A DNA stretch of 64,000 nucleotides from Folioceros fuciformis (Eukaryota). The stretch spans positions 552,735-616,734 of the forward strand of contig JBNGIO010006380.1 of the NCBI GenBank assembly GCA_049999805.1. Reading direction: 5' to 3'. A program made the translations under genes and the position numbers. Position 1 is the first letter of the stretch. Every line of letters begins with the position of its first letter. The notes beneath the pieces were generated by a model, which worked only from the letters and a program-made list of their open reading frames with translations, did not search any database and was not told where the DNA came from. Shown piece after piece: positions 20,326 through 37,690 of this stretch.

Positions 20326-21377
20326 GTCTGTGCCACACCCTCTTGTCACATCCTGTGGCAGGCAGTACATGAGAGGGACGACTGGAGTTCTCACATCACC
20401 TTGGCCATGACATGCCAGGCAACCACAAACAGAACCCGAGAGGAAGTAAGGCACTCGCAACTGACATCATCTTTCACAACCAGAGCGACATGGCTTTCCT
20501 CCCAGTCCCTGGCCTGGCCACATGCCGAGGAGCGTGGACCTTATGCCCGCTTCACAGACACTCCGTCCCAGAGGAACCGGGGGCATTTTTTGCACCCAAG
20601 TATCACAGACCAGCCATTGCTGTCACAGTGCATTGGTACAAGCACGGTTGCTGTGGCATTCGGACATCGCAAGCAACTTGCTCCTCTGCTGCGCATATAC
20701 GCCGATTCTTTCCCGGATTTCCTTGCACCTGCCGCGGGATGCTCGCCTGTCGTTCTTCTTGACTGCTGTGATTACAGCCTGTGATGGGCTTTCCGGGGGC
20801 TCGCAAACCGGCGTGACGCCGTCTCAACCCGCTGGGAGGGTGGTATCGCCCGCTTGTGCCACCTGATTACCATAAGACGTTTGCGTTTCGCCGTTCCTCT
20901 GTGTGAGCCCGGCCTTGGGACTGCAGCTAGAAACTGTTGCTCCTCGCAGTCCCAGCGAGCAGCAGAGCGTGCTTTGCCTCTGGGCGGGGAGGCGGAGTCA
21001 GAGTTGAGTGGACTCGATTCCATCGTTGCAGCAGCGGCGGGTGGCGAGTGCTCGCGGATTGCTTTTTGTACGCCATTGGGAACGCTTATTGAAGCGTGGG
21101 AAATGGCGCTTGTTATGTGGTCCCTGACACTGAGAGTTATGCAATTGTGAGGCCGTCACTGTTATCTGCAGCGTCTCCGAAGACGTACGGCGGTGTAGCA
21201 GAGCGCCGTGTTTGGAGAATTCGCGCTGTTAAGAGCGATTGCCTTGCCTGCAGGGAGCAGGAGTAGTGTAGGAAGTCATTCTCGAAAGCTCTGGTGCGAC
21301 AGCGCAGTGTCAATCGGTCGGCGAGCGCGGAGCTAGAGCCTGCGGTTTTGTGCGTGTGAACTTGGAGTGCTGGAAAA

Positions 21378-22976
21378 ATGGGAGGAAGGTGTGTTGTGAA
21401 GTTTTTGTGTAGTTTCCTCCTTCATTATGTGTTGTTTGCGAGTGTGTAACCAAGAGAGCAATGGATTGCGTGTTTGTTGTGAATCTTGACCCGTGGATTT
21501 GTGCGCTGATCGTCCTTGCTGTCCGCTCTCCGCGGCTGGAATGTGGTGTGTCTCCAGGGAAGAGAACGACGCACGTGCATCGCTGATAGAGAACAGACAA
21601 GATGCCTCGGGCGGAATCCCGGACAGGTTAGGTTTGTTTCTGTTCAGATCTCACCTCAGGCTGGTGTGTTTGCATGCTCCCTGTTCGCTGCGGCGTCTGA
21701 TGGATCTTGCCGTCGATGCAGAGACGAGGATAATGAAACTGCCGGTTTGCCACCATGGACTTGTCGCTTGGCCGCAGACCATGAGGAAGTGGACAGGTCG
21801 GTGGCTACCGCCAGGCTAAGCAAGGCGGTGATATTCTGTCTGGTATTCATGGCTGTGGAGGTAGCTGGAGGTGTGTGGGCCAACAGCTTGGCGATTCTAA
21901 CTGACGCGGCACATATGCTCTCCGATGTTGCTAGCTTTGCGATCTCGCTGTTTGCACTCTGGGCAGCAAGCTGGGACGCAACACCACGTCGTTCCTATGG
22001 TTTTCACAGGCTTGAGATCCTGGGAGCGCTGCTTTCTATACAGATTATTTGGCTGATAACAGGCATACTGGTGTATGAAGCTATTGAGAGGCTCATCCAC
22101 GAGACCCAGCCTGTGGATGGCAAGCTCATGTGTTTCATTGCAGCTCTGGGGTTGGTGGTGAATCTCGCTATGATCTTCCTGCTTGGGCATGGCCATGAGC
22201 ATGGTACCGAAGGAGCTCATTCGCATGGATTTCGCCACAGCCATGCTGTTGGTCATGGTCATGACCATAACCATGTGCATGACCATAACCATGTGCATGA
22301 CCATGCCCACACCCATGCCCATACCCATGATGGGCATGATGTTGAAAGCCATCATGATCAACATGAACAGTTCTCTGCTGACGACCCTGCCAGACCTGTT
22401 GCTCTGGGTCTGCAAGAGGGTGGCCGCTCGGTTCAAGGCACATGCATTGCTTATGCTATAAAAGATGGCAAGCGGACTTGCCAGACCATTAAAGTTGATC
22501 AGGATGTTGCACACGAGGGTGCAGTGTCATCCGGCAATATCAATGTGCGAGGTGCTTACTTGCATGTGCTGGGGGATTTAATCCAAAGCATTGGAGTTCT
22601 AATAGCAGGTGTTGTCATCTGGTATAGACCTGATTGGCAAATTGTAGATCCTGTGTGTACCCTTCTCTTCGCCGTGCTGGTTTTGTTCACAACCATCAGG
22701 ATACTGAGGGACATTTTAGATGTATTGATGGAAAACACCCCACGTGAGATTGATGCACAGAAGTTGGAGGTTGGTCTTTCAAGTATTCAAGATGTAGTTG
22801 CCGTACATGAGTTGCATATCTGGGCCATCACTGTGGGCAAGACTCTTCTCGCCTGCCACGTTACCATCCAACCTGGAGCAGATTACTCTAAGGTTCTGGA
22901 GGATGTTATTGCATATTGTCGGACAGAATTCCAGATTGGCCACGTTACGGTCCAGATTGAGGTGGTCAGAGACTAG
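21378..22976 (+). CDS. MTP1: Metal tolerance protein, MTP1-like Zn cation-diffusion facilitator
   Basis: Proposed exons 21378-21388, 21558-21626 and 21722-22976 (start inferred from splice phases). SLAILTDAAHMLSDVA, His-rich loop, NVRGAYLHVLGDLIQSIG, VHELHIWAITVGK and HVTVQIE. Confidence 0.92.
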
Positions 22977-23023
22977 GAGGAAGGCAGCAGGGGCCCTTGC
23001 ACTGTTAAATCTGACGGGACATC

Positions 23024-23201
23024 TGGCTGCAACGTTTTGATGGGACGATGGTGCACTTGTGCTGGCTGCGAGGTTCTGATGGGACGATGGTGTATCCATG
23101 CTGGCTGCAACGTTCTGATGGTACGATGACACCGTGTATTCATGCTGGCTGCAACGTTCTGATGGGACGATGACATCGTGTATTCATGCTGGCTGCAACG
23201 C
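23024..23201. repeat. About 40-bp tandem repeat (4-5 copies) just 3' of MTP1
   Basis: Unit gctggctgcaacgttctgatgggacgatg(g/a)...tattcat repeated. Confidence 0.88.
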
Positions 23202-25266
23202 TCTTAACCTTAAGAAGATGACAGTGGATCCGCTTTGCTGGATTTCACAATGGAGATGTTTTATTTCCGAGATGTTTAAGTCGTTCATATCCCGAGAGCC
23301 TCAAGTGTTAGGAGACGACATCAAAATTTGTGCTATGCCACGCTTGATGAATTCAAAGTCGATGCATGCATGTGCTCTTTAAGGGTCTACCGGCTTGGCT
23401 TTTTACCAGATACCCAGCTCTCCACGATAAGTTTGTGCGTCCCCTTGGACCTCACTTTTTGTGCTAGCTATGCCACATGTCGCATTCACTGGAAGGAATA
23501 TCTTGGGACATGTCTTTCTCCTTGCGTGAATACACACTTTGATTGAAAGCACGACCCGAATGTCTGAATAAACTCAAGATTCGTTGCTGTCCGAAATTTA
23601 TTTAACGTCTTGATTTCGAAGGTCGAAAGGTCCACCGGTTTACAGTTCAACGGACGTGGCACTTCCCATAACATTCGCCCACGTAACATTTCTCGTTTCA
23701 CTTGACAAGTGGCTGCTGTTTTCATCCCTCCTTGTGAAGATCCAATCCTCCCACTCAGCTACATGTTATTTCCTTTCTGAAAATAAGATTCCCCGTCAAA
23801 TTTCACCGCGCACAACATCAGGGATACTCCTTGGCACGCTTCCTTTTCCTTTACGTAATATTTGCGCACCATTCCCCAGCTCTGTGATGAAGAGATTGCA
23901 CTATGCTATGAGCATCTTCTTCTTCCCGCTCGGACAAGAGGCACTTGTTGTGTATGGTCCATACAAGTCCAGCAGGAAGCGCTGATTTTAGACAGCCATG
24001 TTACTTTAGCTTGCCTGCAAACACCTTTGTACTCACTGGTGCATTACAGAAGGGCAACTCGTTGCAGTTGCACTCACGGACTGTCCAAAGAGGACTGCTG
24101 GACTGCTGGACTGCAGGATAACGTAGTGGTGGGAACCTATCCTGTGGCTTATGTACGTAAAAGTGTACTGGAAGATGCACGCCAGATTTTGGACAGTTTG
24201 GCCGCAAAGTGGAATCTGACTCACAAATCTCGAGTAAGCACTGACTCCAACATACAGTTTCTCTGCCCCCGTTAACCGAATTCCCAACTTTTGCCGATCA
24301 CGCACCAGCATGTTCCACTCGGCAGCATGCACAAATCAGCCATCTAACCTTGCACCAGAGAGCCGAACTTTTCCAATGGGGTCCAAGTCCTTGATGAAAC
24401 CTAACCAAGGACCAACATAAAAAAAATGGTGCGATGCCACCCGGTGAAGCACCCAGAATGCGCCTGCATGAAAGTACCAGGACAAGGGCACGATGGAGCT
24501 CCTTTTGGATATTAGATTCTAGAGCTGCATTTCCCTGGTCCGTACCTACATGTACTGTCGTAGACAATACCTTCTGCCCCAGCCTCATCCATCTCTTGCA
24601 TATCTGACGATGTGCAGGGTGTGGTGCGCTCAGCAAAATCAACCTTTGACATTTTGTGCTTAGGGTTTCAACCAAGTTTGGCCAAGGCTGGTGCAACCGT
24701 TCAATGCAGAGAACCTCGATGAGACTAGAGTCTTGTCTCGCCACGATGAACCACATTTCATACTACGCTGGATGCGCGTTGCTGCGGGCACCTCGATCCT
24801 CTTCGCCCACGCCACCTTTGCCATTCACCGGCTGTCCTGTGTCCAACCTTGAAAGATCTGTTTGTGGGATTCGTCCTCAATCCTCAAACTAAACCAGCGC
24901 GCGGCAGAGCATTGTCAAAAGACCTGAAATACCAGCTGAACCCTCAACGCCCGTGTCAGATTCGAATGCATCAGCATTCGACTGACTATGCACGTAGCCA
25001 ACAAGGTCGTACTTGCCTATTGACGTCTCCATCGAACATTGTTGGTCCGGCAGTTTAAGTGCCATCGTTACTAGACTTCGTGGCTGTCCCTTCGACTCTG
25101 GTGCCATTTATTCCCGATCCGAATGTGACCTCATACAGCCTCGGTTGGCAAAGAGTGCTCAACCGCCTTGGGGCAGAGGTGCGGTCATCATTGGGGTGCG
25201 CGTCCGTCCATCGACTGTTCTGCGCTCGTGACTTCGGCGTCACAAACAAACTTCTTCCTCTTGCCC

Positions 25267-25995
25267 TCATGTTGACCAATGGCTCCTTATTGAATGCTCG
25301 GGGTAGGGGGGGAGGCCTATACCTTCCACTTCTCCAACCTCCTCCTCCTCTGCTGGCCAGTTGTCTAGTGTGTTTAGTCTTAGATCCATGACATGAGTTG
25401 CTTTGGGATCGGCATCCACTGCAATTATGCTTCTTCCGCATTTGAGGGCTGTAATCATCTTGGAGCAAGAGCCAGCACATCCATACAGCACCTAGTCACC
25501 CTCCACTGTTCACTTCGATTATCTTCCTCAATACCCGCATTGGCTTGTGGCATACGGAAAACAACTTTGTCAGTGTCATGTGCTATGAACATATTGTGCT
25601 CCATTGCCTGATACACAAACCTTTCCCATCACTCGTTACGGAGGCTGCTGCACATAGGGGGAAACAGCTGGTGCAAATAATCTTCCTTTGCAAAACTTGA
25701 GCCCATGGTCATGTAGTCCATTGTATCATATAGCTTATTTATCATTGCTATATGACTGTTTGTCCAGTACCAAATGCAAGTTGCCGTGAGCACATCATAA
25801 ACCTTGCACATGTCAATTGGCGAATGAAAAATTACAACCTTGAACATCTCAGACGTGGTTATTCTTCAAACTCCATGATGACCTTGTGAAACTACTATCT
25901 TGTTGTCTCCATAGTGGAAGACGACAACCTTGAACATCTTAGACCTATTATTCCTTCAACTACATGATGACCTTGTGAAACTACTCTCTTGAAAA
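25267..25995 (-). pseudogene. Decayed bacterial-type N4-cytosine/N6-adenine DNA methyltransferase (beta-class-like motif order)
   Basis: Minus-strand translation across frameshifts: ...FKVVIFHSPIDMCKVYDVL...WYWTN...KLYDTMDYMTMG...SVCHKPMRVLRKIIEVNS/EGD*VLYGCAGSCSKMITALKCGRSIIAVDAD. This fits the motif X-I-II pattern HPxQKPxxLLxxLI..S..GDxVLDxFxGSGST..AA...GR..IGxD. Confidence 0.62.
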
Positions 25996-26420
25996 TTATA
26001 TATCAAATTGCCTAGAGTTTATGTCCAACTCCAATCCTAGATCTAGTAATAGCATAGCATATGAACAGGGTTGCATAAGCCGAACCATCTCGATGATTTC
26101 TCCGCACAATATTCCAACCTTACACATTCTTCCTGTGTTCATCCTTAAAGTCATGATTGAATGTGTCTCGACTTCATGACTATAGCAATTGCAACCACTT
26201 GTTTTCATTTCACCTTGAGAAACACAAAAGACAAACAACCTACATGATAACAAACATGGTTGTTAGACCAACAACAAGTAGGAAGGAGAACACTGAGCTC
26301 CTCAAGACATACTTGCACCACAAAGTGCAAGAAAGTGGTATTGCATACCAAAGTGAATGTTCCTTTGAAGCCAAAGTGTTTGTTAAAAAAGCATAGAGCT
26401 CTCTGTACCTGCCTTCTCAA

Positions 26421-27368
26421 CTTTGGGTCATAGTTGAAGAGGCTTACCTCCGTCCATGGGTCAGGGGTAAGAGCTTGAACTTTGGGTCATAGTTGAAGAG
26501 GCTTACCTCCGTCCATGGGTCAGGGGTAAGAGCTTGAGAGTCGTCCATTACAATCATTTGGGTCATAGTTGAAGAGGCTTACCTCCGTCCATGGGTCTGG
26601 GGTAAGAGCTTGAGAGTCGTCCATTACAATCATCTTCGGGTCAAAGCTTGAAAGGCTTCCATTACAATCTTGTTCGGGTTAGAGCTTGAAAGGCTTCCAT
26701 TACAGTTATCTTCTTCAGGTCACAGCTTGAGAGACTTCCATTATAATCATCTTTGAGTTGAGACAGAGCTTGAGAGGCTTCTATTACAATCATCTTAGAG
26801 ACAGAGCTTGAGAGGCTCCCATTATAGTCATCTTTGGGTCACAGCTTGAGAGGCTCCTATTACACTCATCATTGGGTCACAGCTTGAGAAAATTCTATTA
26901 CAATTACCTTCTTCAGGTCTCAACTTGAGAGGCTCCCATTATAGTCACCTGTGGGTCACAACTTGAGAGGCTTGCGCTGCAATCATAATCGGAACAAAGC
27001 TTGAGAAGCTTGCATCACAATCATCTTTGGGTTAAAGCTTGAGAGGCTTCCACTACAATCACCTTTGGCACAGAGCTCGAGAGGCTTCCGCTACAATCAT
27101 CTTTGGCACAGAGCTTAAGAGGCTTCCATTACAATCATCTTCGGGGTCATAGCTCGAGAGGCTTTGATTACAATCATCTTCAGGTCACAATTTGAGAGGC
27201 TTCCATCACAATCATCTTGGGACAAAGCTTAAGAGGCTTCAGTTATAATCATCTTGGGACAGAGCTTGAGAGGCTTCGATAACAAAATCATCTTTGGGTT
27301 GCAGCTTCAGAGGCTTCCATCACAATCATCTTCAGGTTAGAGCTTAAGAGGCTTCCATTACAATCATC
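26421..27368. repeat. Minisatellite array: about 35-38-bp unit (about 20 diverged copies), preceded by 3 longer related units
   Basis: Unit agagcttgagaggcttccattacaatcatctttgggtc. The leading units are tttgggtcatagttgaagaggcttacctccgtccatgggtcaggggtaagagcttga. Confidence 0.92.
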
Positions 27369-27459
27369 AACCACGATGAACTATAATCTTTTTTTGGGTA
27401 GGTGAGTTATATGCTTGTCATTCAATTGACCCCACATGCATTTCTAGCTTACATCACTA

Positions 27460-28028
27460 TAGTTGCACCCGCATAATTCCAATAACTATAATGCAACCGT
27501 GCAATTCTAAGAATTGGAGTTACAACCATGCAATTCTAACAATTGGAATTGCAACCATACAATCCCAATACCTAGAGTGCAACTATGCAATTCTAACAAC
27601 TGGAGTTGCAACCATACAATCCGAATACCTGGAGTGCAACCCTGCAATTCTAACAATTGAAGTTGTAACTATACAATCCCAATACTTGGAGTGCAATCAT
27701 GCAATTCTAACGAATAGAGTTGCAACCATACAATCCCAATACTTGGAGTGCAACCATGCAATTCTAACAATTGGAGTTGCAACCATACAATCCCAATCAC
27801 TAGAGTAAAACCATGCAATTCTAACAATTGGAGTTGCAACCATACAATCCCAATAACTAGAGTACAACCATGCAATTCTAACAATTGGAGTTACAACCTG
27901 CAACCATGCAATTCTAACAATTGGAGTTACAACCTGCAACCATGCAATTCTAACAACTAGAGTGCAGTGTAATCATACAATGCAACCATGCAATTCTAAC
28001 AACTAAAGTGCAGTGCAATCATACAATC
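27460..28028. repeat. Minisatellite array, 57-bp unit built from two related 28-29-bp halves
   Basis: ggagttgcaaccatacaatcccaatactt + ggagtgcaaccatgcaattctaacaatt repeated. Confidence 0.92.
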
Positions 28029-28195
28029 CTGTGACAGGGAGCGAATGAGGTTGAGCCACCTTGTTGGCATTGAAATAGAGTAAAACTCTGAATCTGCAAA
28101 AAAATATATTCAAATTATAAGTATATATTTTTGAGATTCGTAATGTGGTCTTGCCTACAACACTGTCAATATGACTTGACAAACCGCTCGTGCCG

Positions 28196-28428
28196 TGGTT
28201 CATGGTCGAGCCTGCTATATGGTTCATGGTCGGGCCTCCTATGTGGTTAAGGTCGAGCTTACTATGTGGTTCAAGGTCGAGCCTACTATGTGGTTCAAGG
28301 TCGAGCCTACTATGTGGTTCAAGGTCCAGTCTTCTATGTGGTTCAAGGTCGGGCCTCCTATTGTGGTTCAAGGTCGGGCCTACTATATGGTTCAAGGTCG
28401 GGCCTACTATATGGTTCAGGGTCGAGCC
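28196..28428. repeat. 24-bp minisatellite, about 10 copies
   Basis: tggttcaaggtcgagcctactatg repeated. Confidence 0.92.
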
Positions 28429-28529
28429 CTACCCTTTAGATATATCGCACATAAAGTCACCGAAACGTGTAGCAGTTGATGTCAAAACAGGACTCGAACT
28501 TGTTGATTTTCGGACTCTCTATCTCCGAG

Positions 28530-32563: not shown

Positions 32564-33234
32564 GGCCGATCACATGAAAGAAAGCGAGGCTGTCCCACAA
32601 CCGCCAACAGTACACGCCTTCTGACTCACCCACTCCGGGCTGCCCAGCTCGGCACTTGTTTAGGGGCAGCAAACAACAAACAGCGTCCTGCACCAGCACC
32701 TTCCTTTTTTTCTGTGGGTTTACTCGTGTGATGTGTTCCCAGGGCCGGACAGGTCCGGGCAGCGTGCCGTGGAGCCCGTGCTTCATCCGTTGCGGTTGCG
32801 CCGCTGCAGGGAGCTGGAATCCGCCGGCAGCTGGCCGCCGTGGCCCTGTGATGCCGTGCTTTGTTTGAATTCAAGCTGCAACTGCAACCGCCCTTCTTGG
32901 CGGATGCCCCTGGGGAGTGGTGTGGGAGTAGGGTGATTTGATCTGAGCTGGGCGGTGCTGCGGGAGCTGCATATCTCCAGTTGTGGGCGGCTCCGGTAGC
33001 AGCAACTCCGTCTGCATGGAGTCTCCTGAGCTGGGAGGGAAAGTGTTTTGGGTGGTGTTGTGGGATTGGATTGGCTTTGTGTGATGATTGGCATTGGGTT
33101 GCCTTTCTGCATGAGAATCAGACCCGGGCACTGTATATGGTAAATGGGCTAACGGAGGGAGAAGGGTGAGAATTCAATCATGCAGCAACTCGCTTGTAGA
33201 GCTAGTTGCGAGAGGGGGCCCAGGCCGGGACAGT

Positions 33235-36200
33235 ATGAGAGTGGGCGCAGGGATAGCGTGGCTCCAGAGCTTGCCACTTCTGTTGCTACTCCTTGTGTCT
33301 CTCTGTTCTCCAGGCTTCGGATTTGTGCCTCGGTTGGCCAGTGAGATTGGCTGTGGCGGGCCAATTTACTCTGCTGCAGAAGGATCCGATAGTGGTGGGG
33401 GGTGGGGGCAGGTTTTTCATGGACAGCATTTGAATCAGGGGTTTTGGCCTGTGCCTTCGGATGGATTCAGTTTCCTTAATTCCAGTAGGCTAGATGAAGC
33501 TGCACGTACATGCAGCTGCAGCAGTGGTGAGTTTAGGCCTTCATTGCGGGAGGACGAGCTTGGGCCGGTCAGAGCTGTCGGCGAAGTTTCCGACGAAGTC
33601 ATTGTGAGATTTACAGAGTACAAGGATGCGTCGGTACACAAGGAAAAACTGGAAGGCGTTTTGGAAGGGAATGGGTGGGAATGGGTTCACCGTGTGAATC
33701 CTGCCTCTGCCTTCCCAACAGATTTTGGCGTGCTGAAACTGGAACAGGACTGTAGAAATTCGATCCTGGACAAGCTGAACGGGATATCGTTTGTGAAGGA
33801 TGTCTCTGCTCAGGTTCAGTACACACGAGCGCTTGCTAGTGAAGAAGATTCTCGTGACGAAGGGGAGACAGGTTCCCACCACAGCCCAGCCCATGATGAT
33901 TCACACCCTAGAAAATCCCCTGGCCGATTTGCCACAGCATTGTCTTTCGCTGAGGAGTGGCACGCGGACGATGAGGGCAATACTTCCACTAGTCATGAGG
34001 GTCGGAAACTCCTATCCCAGGTACTCAGCCTTTGTAGTCGGGGGCGCTGCTTGCCCCTTTAAATGAACTGTGATTCTTTCCAGACAGCTGTGAGAGCCGT
34101 CTGTGTTTCATTGACATTCTTAGATGGCTTCTGTTCTCAAGCAGAAATCGAAGCTTACATCTATGTTTGGAGCTGAGAAACTTTGGGCAAAGGGCTTCAC
34201 CGGTGCAAAAGTGAAAATGGCAGTGTTTGACACAGGTGTGCGAGCAGATCACCCACATTTCCGCAACATCATGGTGAGCCTTGGGAACGTTGTGTCTCGT
34301 CAGATTTGTTTTCAACTCCACTGTATTGAAATCGAGAGGTCTTATTGGTTTGTATCATGGCATACAGGAAAGAACTGATTGGACGAATGATGGGAATTTG
34401 AACGACAACCTTGGTCATGGAACGTTTGTAGCAGGTGTGATATCAAGCCAAGATCCGCAGTGCCTAGGATTCGCACCCGATGCGGAGATCTATGCTTTCC
34501 GGGTTTTCACTGATGCACAGGTACACATTATGGCTTGATGCAGTGATGCTCTCTGGCAAACGAATTTTTGGGTCTTTGATGTCCATGATTCATGTGTTTG
34601 GCCTGTTTCATGTAGGTGTCGTACACATCGTGGTTCTTGGATGCTTTCAACTATGCAATTGCCACCGCCATGAACGTCCTGAACCTGAGTATTGGGGGAC
34701 CAGATTATTTGGATCGTCCGTTTGTTGAGAAGGTTAAGATACACTTCACTGCATCTTGTATTCTTCAACATTCTGTTTCATGCAGTTCTCGTAATTCATG
34801 TTTGGCTGCAGGTTTGGGAAATGACAGCCAACAAAATTATTATGGTGTCTGCTATTGGGAATGATGGGCCGTTCTACGGTACTCTCAATAATCCTGCAGA
34901 CCAAAGTGATGTAATTGGTGTCGGAGGTATCGATTATAGCGACCACATTGCTGTGTTCTCGTCCCGTGGAATGACGACTTGGGAAATTCCTCATGGGTGA
35001 GAATTTCGTTACAACCATTGCTGAAATGTACTATCATTTGCTTACTTTGGTCAGGTCAGACCTAGTACTAACACTCACCAACCAGTACAGATATGGACGT
35101 GTGAAGCCGGATGTTGTGGCTTATGGAAGGGAGGTTATTGGGTCCAGAATCACATCTGGATGCAAAAGTCTGTCGGGAACCAGTGTTGCTAGTCCGGTTG
35201 TGGCAGGTGCGGTTTGCTTGCTGGCCAGTGTTATACCAGAAAATATCCGGTGGCATATACTCAATCCTGCGAGTATGAAGCAAGCACTTTTGGAAGGTGC
35301 TGCAAGACTAGATGGTCCAAACATGTTTGAGCAGGGTGCGGGCCGTCTTAATCTGTAAGTTGAATCATGTATCACATCTACCTTGTTTCTGAACGCCTAC
35401 GCCCCGATTCAGATGATGTATTGTTGTTTTTTCAGCACTGCAATTTCTTGTCCTTTGTGGCCTACAAGCTCCCATGACTAAGTTGTGGCCATTTTGGGAT
35501 ATAGGTTGGCTTCCTATGATGTTCTCGTAAATTATAAACCACGCGCAAGTGTTTTCCCAAACAAGCTAGACTTCACTGATTGCCCCTACTCATGGCCTTT
35601 TTGTCATCAGCCCATGTATGCTGGTGCAATGCCTGTAATATTTAATGCAACTATTCTGAATGGGATGGGCGTTATGGGATCTGTCGAAGGTGAGCCTTTG
35701 TGGGTGCCTTCGGAAGATGCTGCCAACTTGTTGGACATTCAGTTCACCTACTCTGACTATATCTGGCCATGGACTGGGTATCTGGGGCTGCACATGCGAG
35801 TAAAGTCTGAAGGAAGCAACTTTCAGGGCATTATTGAAGGAAATGTCGTCTTTACGATAGTCTCCTCTCCCGGGACAGGAGAAGAAAATGTCCGTCGATC
35901 TGACTGTGTGCTGCCTGTCCGGGTTGAAGTAATTCCAACTCCTCAACGTGAGAAGCGGATCTTGTGGGATCAATTTCACAGCATCAGGTACCCACCGGGG
36001 TACATTCCACGAGATTCCCTGGATGTGAGGAACGACATCCTTGATTGGCATGGAGACCACTTGCACACGAATTTTCATGGGATGTTTGACAATCTGCGTG
36101 ATGCTGGCTACCATGTAGAAATTCTGGGCTCGCCATTTACTTGCTTCGATGCCACACAATATGGTACCTTGTTATTGGTGGACCTGGAGGATGAGTACCA

Positions 36201-37690
36201 TCCAGAAGAGGTTGCAAAGCTGAAGAATGATGTGGAGGTTCATGGTCTAGGACTTATCGTGTTTGCAGACTGGTATCATGTGGAGACAATGATCAAGATG
36301 AAGTTTTTTGATGACAATACTCGAAGTTGGTGGACACCTGCCACCGGCGGTGCAAACATTCCAGCATTGAATGACTTGCTATCTCCTTTTGGGATTGCAT
36401 TTGGGGACACCATTTTAAATGGGCCCTATTCTATTGGGGGTGAGAGAATTCATTATGCCTCTGGTACCGATATAGTACGCTTTCCTGCCGGTGGGTTTGT
36501 TCATCGATTTCTCTTTCAGGACAGTTTTGCCTTGGGTTTGGGGCTTTCATCCACACGAACTGCAGTCCGACCACAGGTGGGCTTGCCTGTTTGCGGTTTA
36601 CCTTTCTGTCAGTTTGGTCGCTATTTTTGGCTGCATTCTGATGAATTTCTTTGATCCTCAGATCGAACTGCCAATTTTGGGAGCCATAGAGGTTGCGAAG
36701 GGCCGCGTCACGGTATACGGAGATTCAAATTGTCTAGACAGTAGTCACAATCTGAGTAACTGCTACTGGCTCTTGAGAAAGCTGCTGAACTTCACTAGTC
36801 ACAAGGTTCGGGATCCAATGCTTTTCACTCCAGCAAACCAGCTACTGACTCCTCTAGGGGGACCAGAAACAGTTCTCCCCGTCCGAAGGGATGATGTTAA
36901 CTTGACTGCATATTCCCTTGTCTTAGATCATGACTTACTATGTGGCCTAGATGCACCACTGGAGGTACAACATTCTAAAGGGTATGTGTTACCAGCCGTG
37001 CCACCAAGGAGGGTTGCAGCAGGAAAAATGCCTCATCCTATTGATTCATACCGGGAACTGATTGGCAGTGTCAGCAACTCCTCTCTGCATGCACCTCAGG
37101 GGTCTGTGGAATTTAACATTCCAGTGAGTGCCTTCGCTACCAAGGAGGAGGGAAGCAGTAGTGTGAGGATACCGGCTATGCCCCCTAATGAATCTCTCGC
37201 TCAGGTGATCAAGGTTCAGATACAAGAAGAACCAGGAACCACAGAGGACCACTCAGGAGAACGGCGGGAAAGCAGGAGGTCCACCTCACAACAAACAGCG
37301 AAGAGTGTGGCGCACCTACGTTTCGATGATGAGGTACATCCCGCCCGATCTTGTGCAAGAAAAAAACCTTGAAGTATTGTTCGTGTTCCGTGTTGGCTCA
37401 AGTAAAGCTTACGCAGTTTCAAACTTTTGCAGTGGAATGTGCAGCTGGATGGAAGTCTTCTGGCTGTTCAGCGGCTTTTCCCTGTAGTCTTCTGTGCCGT
37501 AGGTGAGCTGCTCACTAGTCTGTTGCTAAGCTGATATATCCTTCTTTTTGCTCAAGACCCGGTGGTTGAGCTTTAGACTTGCTTGATATGGCATGCAGGG
37601 ATTGTAGTATTGGTGATGAGCATATGGCGCGCCAGACAGAAAAAGCGGAGGAGAACGAGGAAGGCCGCAGGACGTGGTCTCCTCCCTTAG
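33235..37690 (+). CDS. SBT6.1: Subtilisin-like site-1 protease
   Basis: Signal peptide and catalytic triad motifs [15 protein letters not shown] and [12 protein letters not shown]. Also [40 protein letters not shown], and a C-terminal TM segment with a basic tail RQKKRRR. Confidence 0.95.

Follow-up and report, generated by a model that had tools for sequence, protein, structure and literature searches.

The 64,000-nucleotide (nt) window analyzed here is a stretch of Folioceros fuciformis contig JBNGIO010006380.1, and all coordinates below are positions in that window. Between ~26173 and ~25216 on the minus strand, on which the locus is read, the window carries a broken coding sequence that is collinear with residues ~54-347 of P0001, one of six related proteins from the Logan assemblies. 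The locus is very probably a pseudogene of a stand-alone, eukaryote-encoded gene resembling the beta-class (PF01555-type) amino-methyltransferases, from a small family that is known only from these six proteins. An earlier note on this DNA had placed the remnant at 25267-25995, an interval that proved too short for the homology. The following pieces were recognized, where "family" refers to the six relatives:

25216-26173, minus strand: the whole pseudogene, remnant of a large methyltransferase-like exon (tblastn, frameshift-aware alignments and family hidden Markov model (HMM))
25966-26133, minus strand: N-terminal core piece, family residues ~59-125 (tblastn; HMM E-value 2.2e-8 for 25999-26262)
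26023-26052, minus strand: remnant at the position of catalytic motif IV, LLLDL--GLELD (aligned to LL.LDLPRGL.(L/M)D of the relatives)
25825-25902 and 25915-25991, minus strand: tandem duplication of ~90 nt, family residues ~117-143 (F..I..F....F.VV.FH)
25632-25865, minus strand: central piece MFKVVIFHSPID...CIWYWTN...KLYDTMDYMTMG (HMM E-value 1.4e-11; tblastn 45.1 bits)
25499-25582, minus strand: QKP-helix piece CHKPMRVLRKIIEVNS (CHKPMRVLRKIIEVNSGG; frameshift-aware alignments; HMM E-value 0.83, collinear)
25270-25494, minus strand: S-adenosylmethionine (AdoMet) motifs I and II, then the family-specific tail LRLNTLDNWPAEEEEVGE (HMM E-value 3.5e-15)
25238-25300, minus strand: C-terminal family tail RAFNKEPLVNMRARGRS in a third frame, past a 2-nt frameshift at 25311-25310 (tblastn and frameshift-aware alignments)

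All of the minus-strand peptides quoted in the earlier note were found at their places (25582-25499, 25491-25267 and 25865-25629). The central frame (25865-25629) reads MFKVVIFHSP...WYWTN...KLYDTMDYMTMG, with the full peptide MFKVVIFHSPIDMCKVYDVLTATCIWYWTNSHIAMINKLYDTMDYMTMG, and corresponds to family residues ~130-205, which include the VFHSPDD strand and the CVW.K.N motif. FKVVIFHS does not represent the catalytic motif and aligns to the strand that comes after that motif. Since the homology extends past the interval 25267-25995, the remnant at the catalytic position (26052-26023) falls outside it. The duplicated piece is real as well, with 76 % identity between 25825-25869 and 25915-25959, 89 % between 25859-25902 and 25948-25991, and a period of ~90 nt. 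The CHKPMRVLRKIIEVNS piece is equivalent to SPYQKP.RLLK..I of the family and to HPTQKP..L...I of the canonical enzymes, and is flanked by 1-nt frameshifts near 25559 and 25510. In a different frame, EGD is followed by a TAG stop and then by VLYGCAGSCSKMITALKCGRSIIAVDADPKA... (VLYGCAGSCSKMITALKCGRSIIAVDADPKATHVMDLRLNTLDNWPAEEEEVGE...; open reading frame (ORF) 25491-25267). The order of the motifs along the window (26052 > 25865 > 25582 > 25491) is the permuted order of the beta class.

When 1.84 billion representative sequences were searched by HMMER with a 74-amino-acid (aa) ORF from the locus (cut-off E ≤ 0.001), six proteins were returned. Two of them, P0001 (446 aa; E-value 2.6e-8) and P0003 (283 aa; E-value 3.4e-6), are real relatives and both score above the PF01555 gathering score. 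The remaining four (P0002, P0004, P0005 and P0006) are repeat proteins and were rejected as unrelated. Word-index searches added P0007, P0008, P0009 and P0010, which brings the relatives to six in all. They occur in Logan assemblies only and without annotation, and five of them are singleton clusters.

The relatives were then compared with the window. By tblastn, P0001 residues 68-125 matched 26133-25966, residues 131-205 matched 25862-25659, residues 260-322 matched 25509-25321 and residues 327-347 matched 25300-25238 (sum E-values 2e-14 and 1e-11; P0003, 5e-12). The upstream frames 25862-25659 and 26133-25966 lie outside the 74-aa query, and they also match the relatives in collinear order. 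A family profile was built from the six relatives without any window sequence and was run unfiltered against the complete six-frame translation of the window, which consists of 2,726 pieces with 114,490 aa. The three best matches were 25270-25491 (E-value 3.5e-15), 25632-25865 (1.4e-11) and 25999-26262 (2.2e-8), all on the minus strand. The next three pieces (E-values 0.83, 1.5 and 2.1) belong to the locus as well and keep the collinear order, and no other piece of the whole window came below an E-value of 4.

Chance similarity in intergenic or satellite-derived DNA could be proposed because the raw frames found nothing in Pfam or the PDB (see below) and because 25 nt within motif I (25448-25472) are 72 % like the unit of a neighbouring 38-nt satellite. 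However, the profile matches are collinear and regions outside the query match too; these matches and their E-values exclude chance, which we regard as a practically negligible explanation. A satellite origin of the motif I region was considered separately and rejected. In a scan with the satellite consensus, the locus matched no more than 20-22 of 38 positions and stayed at the level of the background, which reached up to 23, whereas 33-36 positions matched in the array itself.

With P0001 as the guide, frameshifts were located at 25867/6, 25673, 25618/7, 25559, 25510 and 25311/0, and in-frame stops at 25998-25996 (TAA), 25983-25981 (TAG) and 25494-25492 (TAG). The last of these occupies the position of a W in motif I of the relatives. 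Two codons (PR) are gone from the catalytic loop, where the window reads DL--GL. Motifs I and II read YGCAGSCSK...GRSIIAVDADP, with C in place of the second G of GSG and with the stop lying two codons before the motif. In the frameshift-aware alignment with P0001, 78 of 213 codons are identical, with 6 frameshifts and 1 stop; the identical codons number 84 of 246 for P0007, 62 of 168 for P0003, 76 of 174 for P0008 and 26 of 67 for P0010. The window copy is thus 34-44 % identical to the relatives across 67-246 aligned codons. The locus combines homology to a coding gene with disabling lesions (at least six frameshifts, three stops, a two-codon loss and a 90-nt duplication). As it stands, it is a pseudogene and no enzyme product is possible. 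The copy could have decayed in place, or it could have been duplicated and then have decayed.

A live gene that merely looks broken, through assembly errors, unrecognized introns or recoding, was also considered. Contigs from two DNA runs match the window letter for letter, at a depth equal to that of the flanking genes; both runs are from one sample, possibly the source of the assembly, which leaves some room for this explanation. In addition, an RNA contig of low depth (24017-25276, run X3; depth 5.5) touches the 3' end of the locus. This contig is unspliced, terminates within the pseudogene's 3' tail and is without a Pfam family in any frame; no RNA contig of run X3 was found across 25277-26400, a result that carries no verdict on expression. 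Against a live gene stand at least nine separate lesions, including the TAG inside motif I, the deletion in the catalytic loop and the internal duplication. The frameshifts are 50-60 nt apart and leave no room for introns, which measure 76-169 nt in this genome, and the contigs of the two DNA runs agree with each other in every letter. We therefore consider a live gene very improbable.

The identity of the family was established through its intact members. PF01555 was found above its gathering score in five of the six relatives (best E-value 5.3e-15; cut-off 26.7 bits), the sixth being an N-terminal fragment. When the family was aligned by hhalign to six canonical enzymes, consisting of four DPPY enzymes and two phage-like DLPYG ones, a probability of 98.2 % and an E-value of 2.7e-14 over 234 columns were obtained. 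The alignment spans family residues 50-308, from the catalytic loop (motif IV) through the QKP helix to motifs I and II, and MAFFT placed the same columns together. When the family profile was compared with the PDB, the top 11 matches were all beta-class DNA amino-methyltransferases, among them TTHA0409 (4.7e-9), the N4C enzyme of A. vaga (2.5e-6), DpnA/M1.HpyAVI, M.BceJIV, M.RsrI, M.MboIIA and CcrM. Protein, RNA and small-molecule enzymes appeared in this search only at E ≥ 0.08. DNA-methyltransferase families of PHROG matched with E-values down to 1.7e-18. The NCBIfam equivalogs remained far under their cut-offs (e.g. 24-31 bits against 830 for CcrM).

These searches bear on two points of the earlier note. 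Its suggestion of a decayed beta-class (PF01555) homologue in a eukaryotic nuclear setting holds by way of the relatives, while the proposed carriage by a mobile element was not borne out (see below). The note had also regarded best matches to RNA, protein or small-molecule methyltransferases as fatal to its reading; the best matches of the family profile are DNA amino-methyltransferases, and the link to them runs via the intact relatives only.

Several results weigh against the assignment of the locus to this class. A Pfam search with 7 ORF pieces, and with the 3 frames of 25199-26100 read through their stops (each as X), found no family at E ≤ 10. The earlier note had named the absence of a match to the PF01555 profile as a refutation, and taken literally this is the outcome, as no frame of 25199-26100 matches the profile at that threshold. 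The same three frames found no methyltransferase in the PDB at E ≤ 10 by phmmer, where chance matches to a peptidase, TiaS, haemagglutinin and perforin were seen at E-values of 0.5-1.4. A small HMM of canonical enzymes reached an E-value of only 0.042 with the 74-aa piece. Four of the six proteins returned by the 74-aa search were unrelated, and thus the E-values of that search alone are untrustworthy. The assignment depends wholly on the six Logan relatives. Confirmation of the lesions comes from two DNA runs of that one sample and is therefore not independent. The first AlphaFold model was unusable, with a mean predicted local distance difference test score (pLDDT) of 38.6, and the second, made from a 12-sequence alignment, was only moderate (mean pLDDT 53; core 65-86). 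With this second model, Foldseek placed CcrM, M1.HpyAVI, M.BceJIV and M.MboIIA on top (E-value ~1e-10; template-modelling score on the target 0.53-0.73) and also matched N4CMT, M.RsrI and M.PvuII, with E-values from 1e-10 to 1e-7 overall. Since canonical enzymes were part of the alignment behind the model, the fold match is supportive but not independent.

A language-model look-up (Atlas) with the 74-aa ORF gave a score of 0.94 with 183 of 256 features, and 24 of 30 matches fell in PF01555 fragment clusters. We treat this pointer to PF01555 as a lead only. No Rfam family was found within the window.

The catalytic loop of the family is not the canonical one. All three relatives that keep the N-terminus (P0001, P0007 and P0010/P0016) have LDLPRGL in the column of the canonical DPPY. 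The tetrapeptide (D/N/S)PP(Y/F/W) is absent from all three, with both the second proline and the aromatic residue lost. DLPRGL is invariant though the proteins are otherwise only ~50 % identical, which argues for constraint. In motifs I and II, the relatives read DGC(S/A)GSGS...RNV.AVD.DP; the GSG and the acidic residue are kept, and the canonical P and F are replaced. The QKP helix of the family reads SPYQKP.RLLK, and a conserved acidic C-terminal tail follows the pattern LP.E.EEIGE...F.KEPM.

Judged from these motifs, the ancestral gene and its relatives would have the permuted beta-class fold, with the catalytic loop placed first and the QKP helix, AdoMet motif I (DG.xGSGS) and motif II (AVD.DP) coming after it towards the C-terminus. 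Such a protein would be expected to bind S-adenosylmethionine. The relatives may be methyltransferases with an altered loop or inactive pseudoenzymes acting as a 'reader/scaffold', and we judge these two possibilities about equally likely. The earlier note had supposed that intact relatives elsewhere in the genome could write N4-methylcytosine (4mC) or N6-methyladenine (6mA). Intact relatives are known from the Logan assemblies, and their writing of these marks is doubtful, given DLPR in place of (D/N/S)PP(Y/F) in every one that retains the N-terminus. A comparable case is provided by catalytically degenerate partners of methyltransferases of the MT-A70 type (e.g. METTL14), in which an AdoMet-type scaffold is kept and the canonical catalytic tetrapeptide is lost. 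These partners belong to MT-A70, not to PF01555; METTL3-METTL14 chains were distant fold matches of the second model (E-value ~4e-6).

The family shares its permuted motif order with the canonical beta-class enzymes (CcrM, M.RsrI, M.MboIIA, M1.HpyAVI/DpnA, M.PvuII and TTHA0409). It differs from them in motif I (DGC.GSGS instead of DPF.GSGTT) and in the loop (DLPR instead of (D/N/S)PP(Y/F)), and also in its spliced eukaryotic gene, an N-terminal extension of ~200 aa and the conserved acidic C-terminal tail. Two phage-like genes from metagenome contigs (L001:1749-2522 and L002:4524-5291) have a similar loop, as their DLPYG is one residue off DLPRG, and the same QKP and GSG motifs. They are, however, intronless genes of the prokaryotic type (255-257 aa), keep the aromatic Y and show 26 % identity over residues 231-306.

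In the literature consulted, PF01555 amino-methyltransferases are described as rare in eukaryotic nuclear genomes, the named cases being N4CMT of bdelloid rotifers and DN4MT1 of Marchantia (PMC8885841; bioRxiv 10.1101/2021.02.12.428880; PMC12344493). A 2025 survey treats these two as independent acquisitions from bacteria. MpDN4MT1a/b of Marchantia polymorpha is described as a sperm 4mC methyltransferase with TSPPY that clusters with prokaryotic N4C enzymes (bioRxiv 10.1101/2021.02.12.428880). Like the family, DN4MT1 is a beta-class amino-methyltransferase of prokaryotic type in a land-plant nuclear genome, and it is set apart by its published description, with TSPPY where the family has DLPR. 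No protein with a DN4MT1-like name was among the word-index matches, and nothing tied the family specifically to the Marchantia enzyme.

N4CMT of bdelloid rotifers carries a chromodomain, is a proven writer of 4mC and is said to be without eukaryotic homologues (PMC8885841). N4CMT (PDB 8s9m, 8s9n and 8s9o) is a PF01555 domain that became domesticated in a eukaryote, where its gene contains introns and a eukaryotic region has been added. N4CMT matched the family at 2.5e-6 in the profile search and 8.0e-10 in the fold search, with a sequence identity of just 13-15 % in the fold alignment. Its chromodomain is C-terminal, whereas none was found in the family by Pfam and the catalytic loop of the family is non-canonical. 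In the literature we found no DLPR-type PF01555 family in plants, though supplements, which were not covered, may list such genes. A hornwort 'DNA methyltransferase' attributed to horizontal gene transfer was set aside as unrelated, being of the O6-methylguanine repair type (PF02870/PF01035).

The gene structure of one relative could be worked out. P0016 (418 aa, on a 4,011-nt contig) consists of residues 1-184 of P0015 joined to residues 14-229 of P0010, and P0015 and P0010 are each found on a 16,193-nt contig, presumed to be the same one. P0016 thus contains an exon-exon joint, and this relative is spliced. The residue that follows the joint in P0015 is V, encoded by a GTN codon, and a Q stands just before the shared RVRSVGNL in P0010 as well as in P0001; by sequence, these residues would fit GT..AG boundaries. 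The upstream exon (P0016 residues 1-202, corresponding to P0015 1-184) encodes ~200 aa without a Pfam, NCBIfam or PHROG family. It includes a basic stretch, KRRPRK, which could be a nuclear localization signal. No counterpart of this exon was found in the window (best E-value 0.095, not collinear).

The missing upstream exon raises the question of a processed (retrotransposed) pseudogene, with its expressed parent gene elsewhere in the genome. Only the large methyltransferase-like exon is represented at the locus, and the locus is uninterrupted where the predicted P0007, P0009 and P0010 break off, both as a retrocopy might be. The same stretch is, however, a single uninterrupted frame in P0001, and hence the lack of introns at the locus needs no retroposition. 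The predicted N-terminus of P0001 reaches what appears to be the same exon boundary as P0010. The upstream exon, which would be expected in a retrocopy, is absent here, and neither a poly(A) remnant downstream nor another retrocopy hallmark was found, A/T runs of at least 7 nt occurring in 23000-28500 only at 24419, 27389 and 28098. A retrocopy is thus an improbable source of the locus.

The pseudogene sits in a spacer rich in tandem repeats, between nuclear genes. On one side is a cation-efflux (CDF/MTP-type) gene at 21000-22976 (Pfam E-value 2.2e-43) with two short GT..AG introns (169 and 95 nt in RNA contigs). The cluster closest to this protein is one of Streptophyta (ranks 1 and 3 Streptophyta, rank 2 Arthropoda), a ranking that we use as a lead only; on this basis a plant-type nuclear genome is likely. 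On the other side is a gene on the minus strand, whose seven short introns (CT..AC as written, i.e. GT..AG on the minus strand) fall between 28571 and 29721. Directly upstream of the pseudogene, with respect to the minus strand, is the 38-nt satellite array (26419-27373; ~22 copies, 74 % matches). A single DNA contig covers 21000-26448, with zero differing letters and with a depth equal to that of the flanking genes, which indicates a single copy as far as near-identical copies are concerned.

In this setting we weighed the possibility that the methyltransferase was carried by a transposon or virus and that the locus is the fossil of an insertion, close to what the earlier note had proposed. 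Phages and giant viruses typically carry PF01555 genes as cargo, the nearest named relatives of the family are phage DNA-methyltransferase PHROGs, and the DLPYG loop of the two phage-like metagenome genes is close to DLPRG. The spacer is rich in repeats, and the 200-aa N-terminal extension of P0016, having no known family, could belong to an unknown element. No sign of a mobile element was found at the locus. Neither terminal inverted repeats nor long direct repeats flank it. In 23299-25252, none of the six frames gave a Pfam family, no transposase or reverse-transcriptase remnants were found, and upstream there is only satellite DNA. The DNA depth is that of a single copy on one contig, and the gene of one relative is spliced in the ordinary way. 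Two scans for the pattern in viral contigs turned up no relative, and no longer fused proteins were found by profile, although the latter is weak evidence. Elsewhere, no relative was found in prokaryote genomes, the metagenome contigs held only the two distant phage-like genes with 26 % identity, and the 79 phage records were all below 60 % identity with at most 41 % of the query covered. Carriage by a mobile element, with no flanking repeats, element genes, fused forms or viral relatives and a depth equal to the flanks, is accordingly not upheld, and we rate it as unlikely.

Other features of the window were recorded. A hexamer repeat (22260-22330) lies inside the coding region of the cation-efflux gene, and a 44-nt tandem repeat (23012-23221; 4.4 copies) is found just downstream of it. 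The 38-nt satellite begins with a 59/76-nt higher-order structure at 26419-26658. It is followed by two further tandem arrays, at 27466-28027 (57-nt unit, 6.6 copies) and 28170-28450 (24-nt unit, ~10 copies). RNA contigs of run X3 with a very high depth (460-676) overlap the 24-nt array, which appears to be the 3' end of the seven-intron gene. The window also contains genes for a site-1 protease (MBTPS1/S1P), an AlgH-like DUF179 protein, a RING protein, EAF and a class II tRNA synthetase. The site-1 protease gene (33115-37372) has large exons, and its Pfam domains are MBTP1_N and the third Ig-like and fourth GATase-like domains.

Because the window copy is dead, it gives no information on present-day methylation in the host. 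The value of the locus is as a pointer to six intact or partial relatives that are without annotation in any named source and that combine eukaryotic gene structure with a conserved non-canonical catalytic loop. We tentatively raise the possibility, short of an even chance, that these relatives represent an undescribed, host-encoded family of streptophyte-like eukaryotes, derived from a domesticated phage or bacterial beta-class amino-methyltransferase, which is spliced and has acquired a new 200-aa N-terminus, an acidic tail and the DLPRGL loop. If so, it would be a further eukaryotic acquisition of PF01555, separate from rotifer N4CMT and Marchantia DN4MT1, and the family could be a writer with a non-canonical site or a reader or scaffold with the methyltransferase fold. 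If the relatives are contaminants or the cargo of an element, the locus would be an ordinary gene relic. If they are plant genes under selection, they would be candidates for an unrecognized DNA-modification or modification-reading activity.

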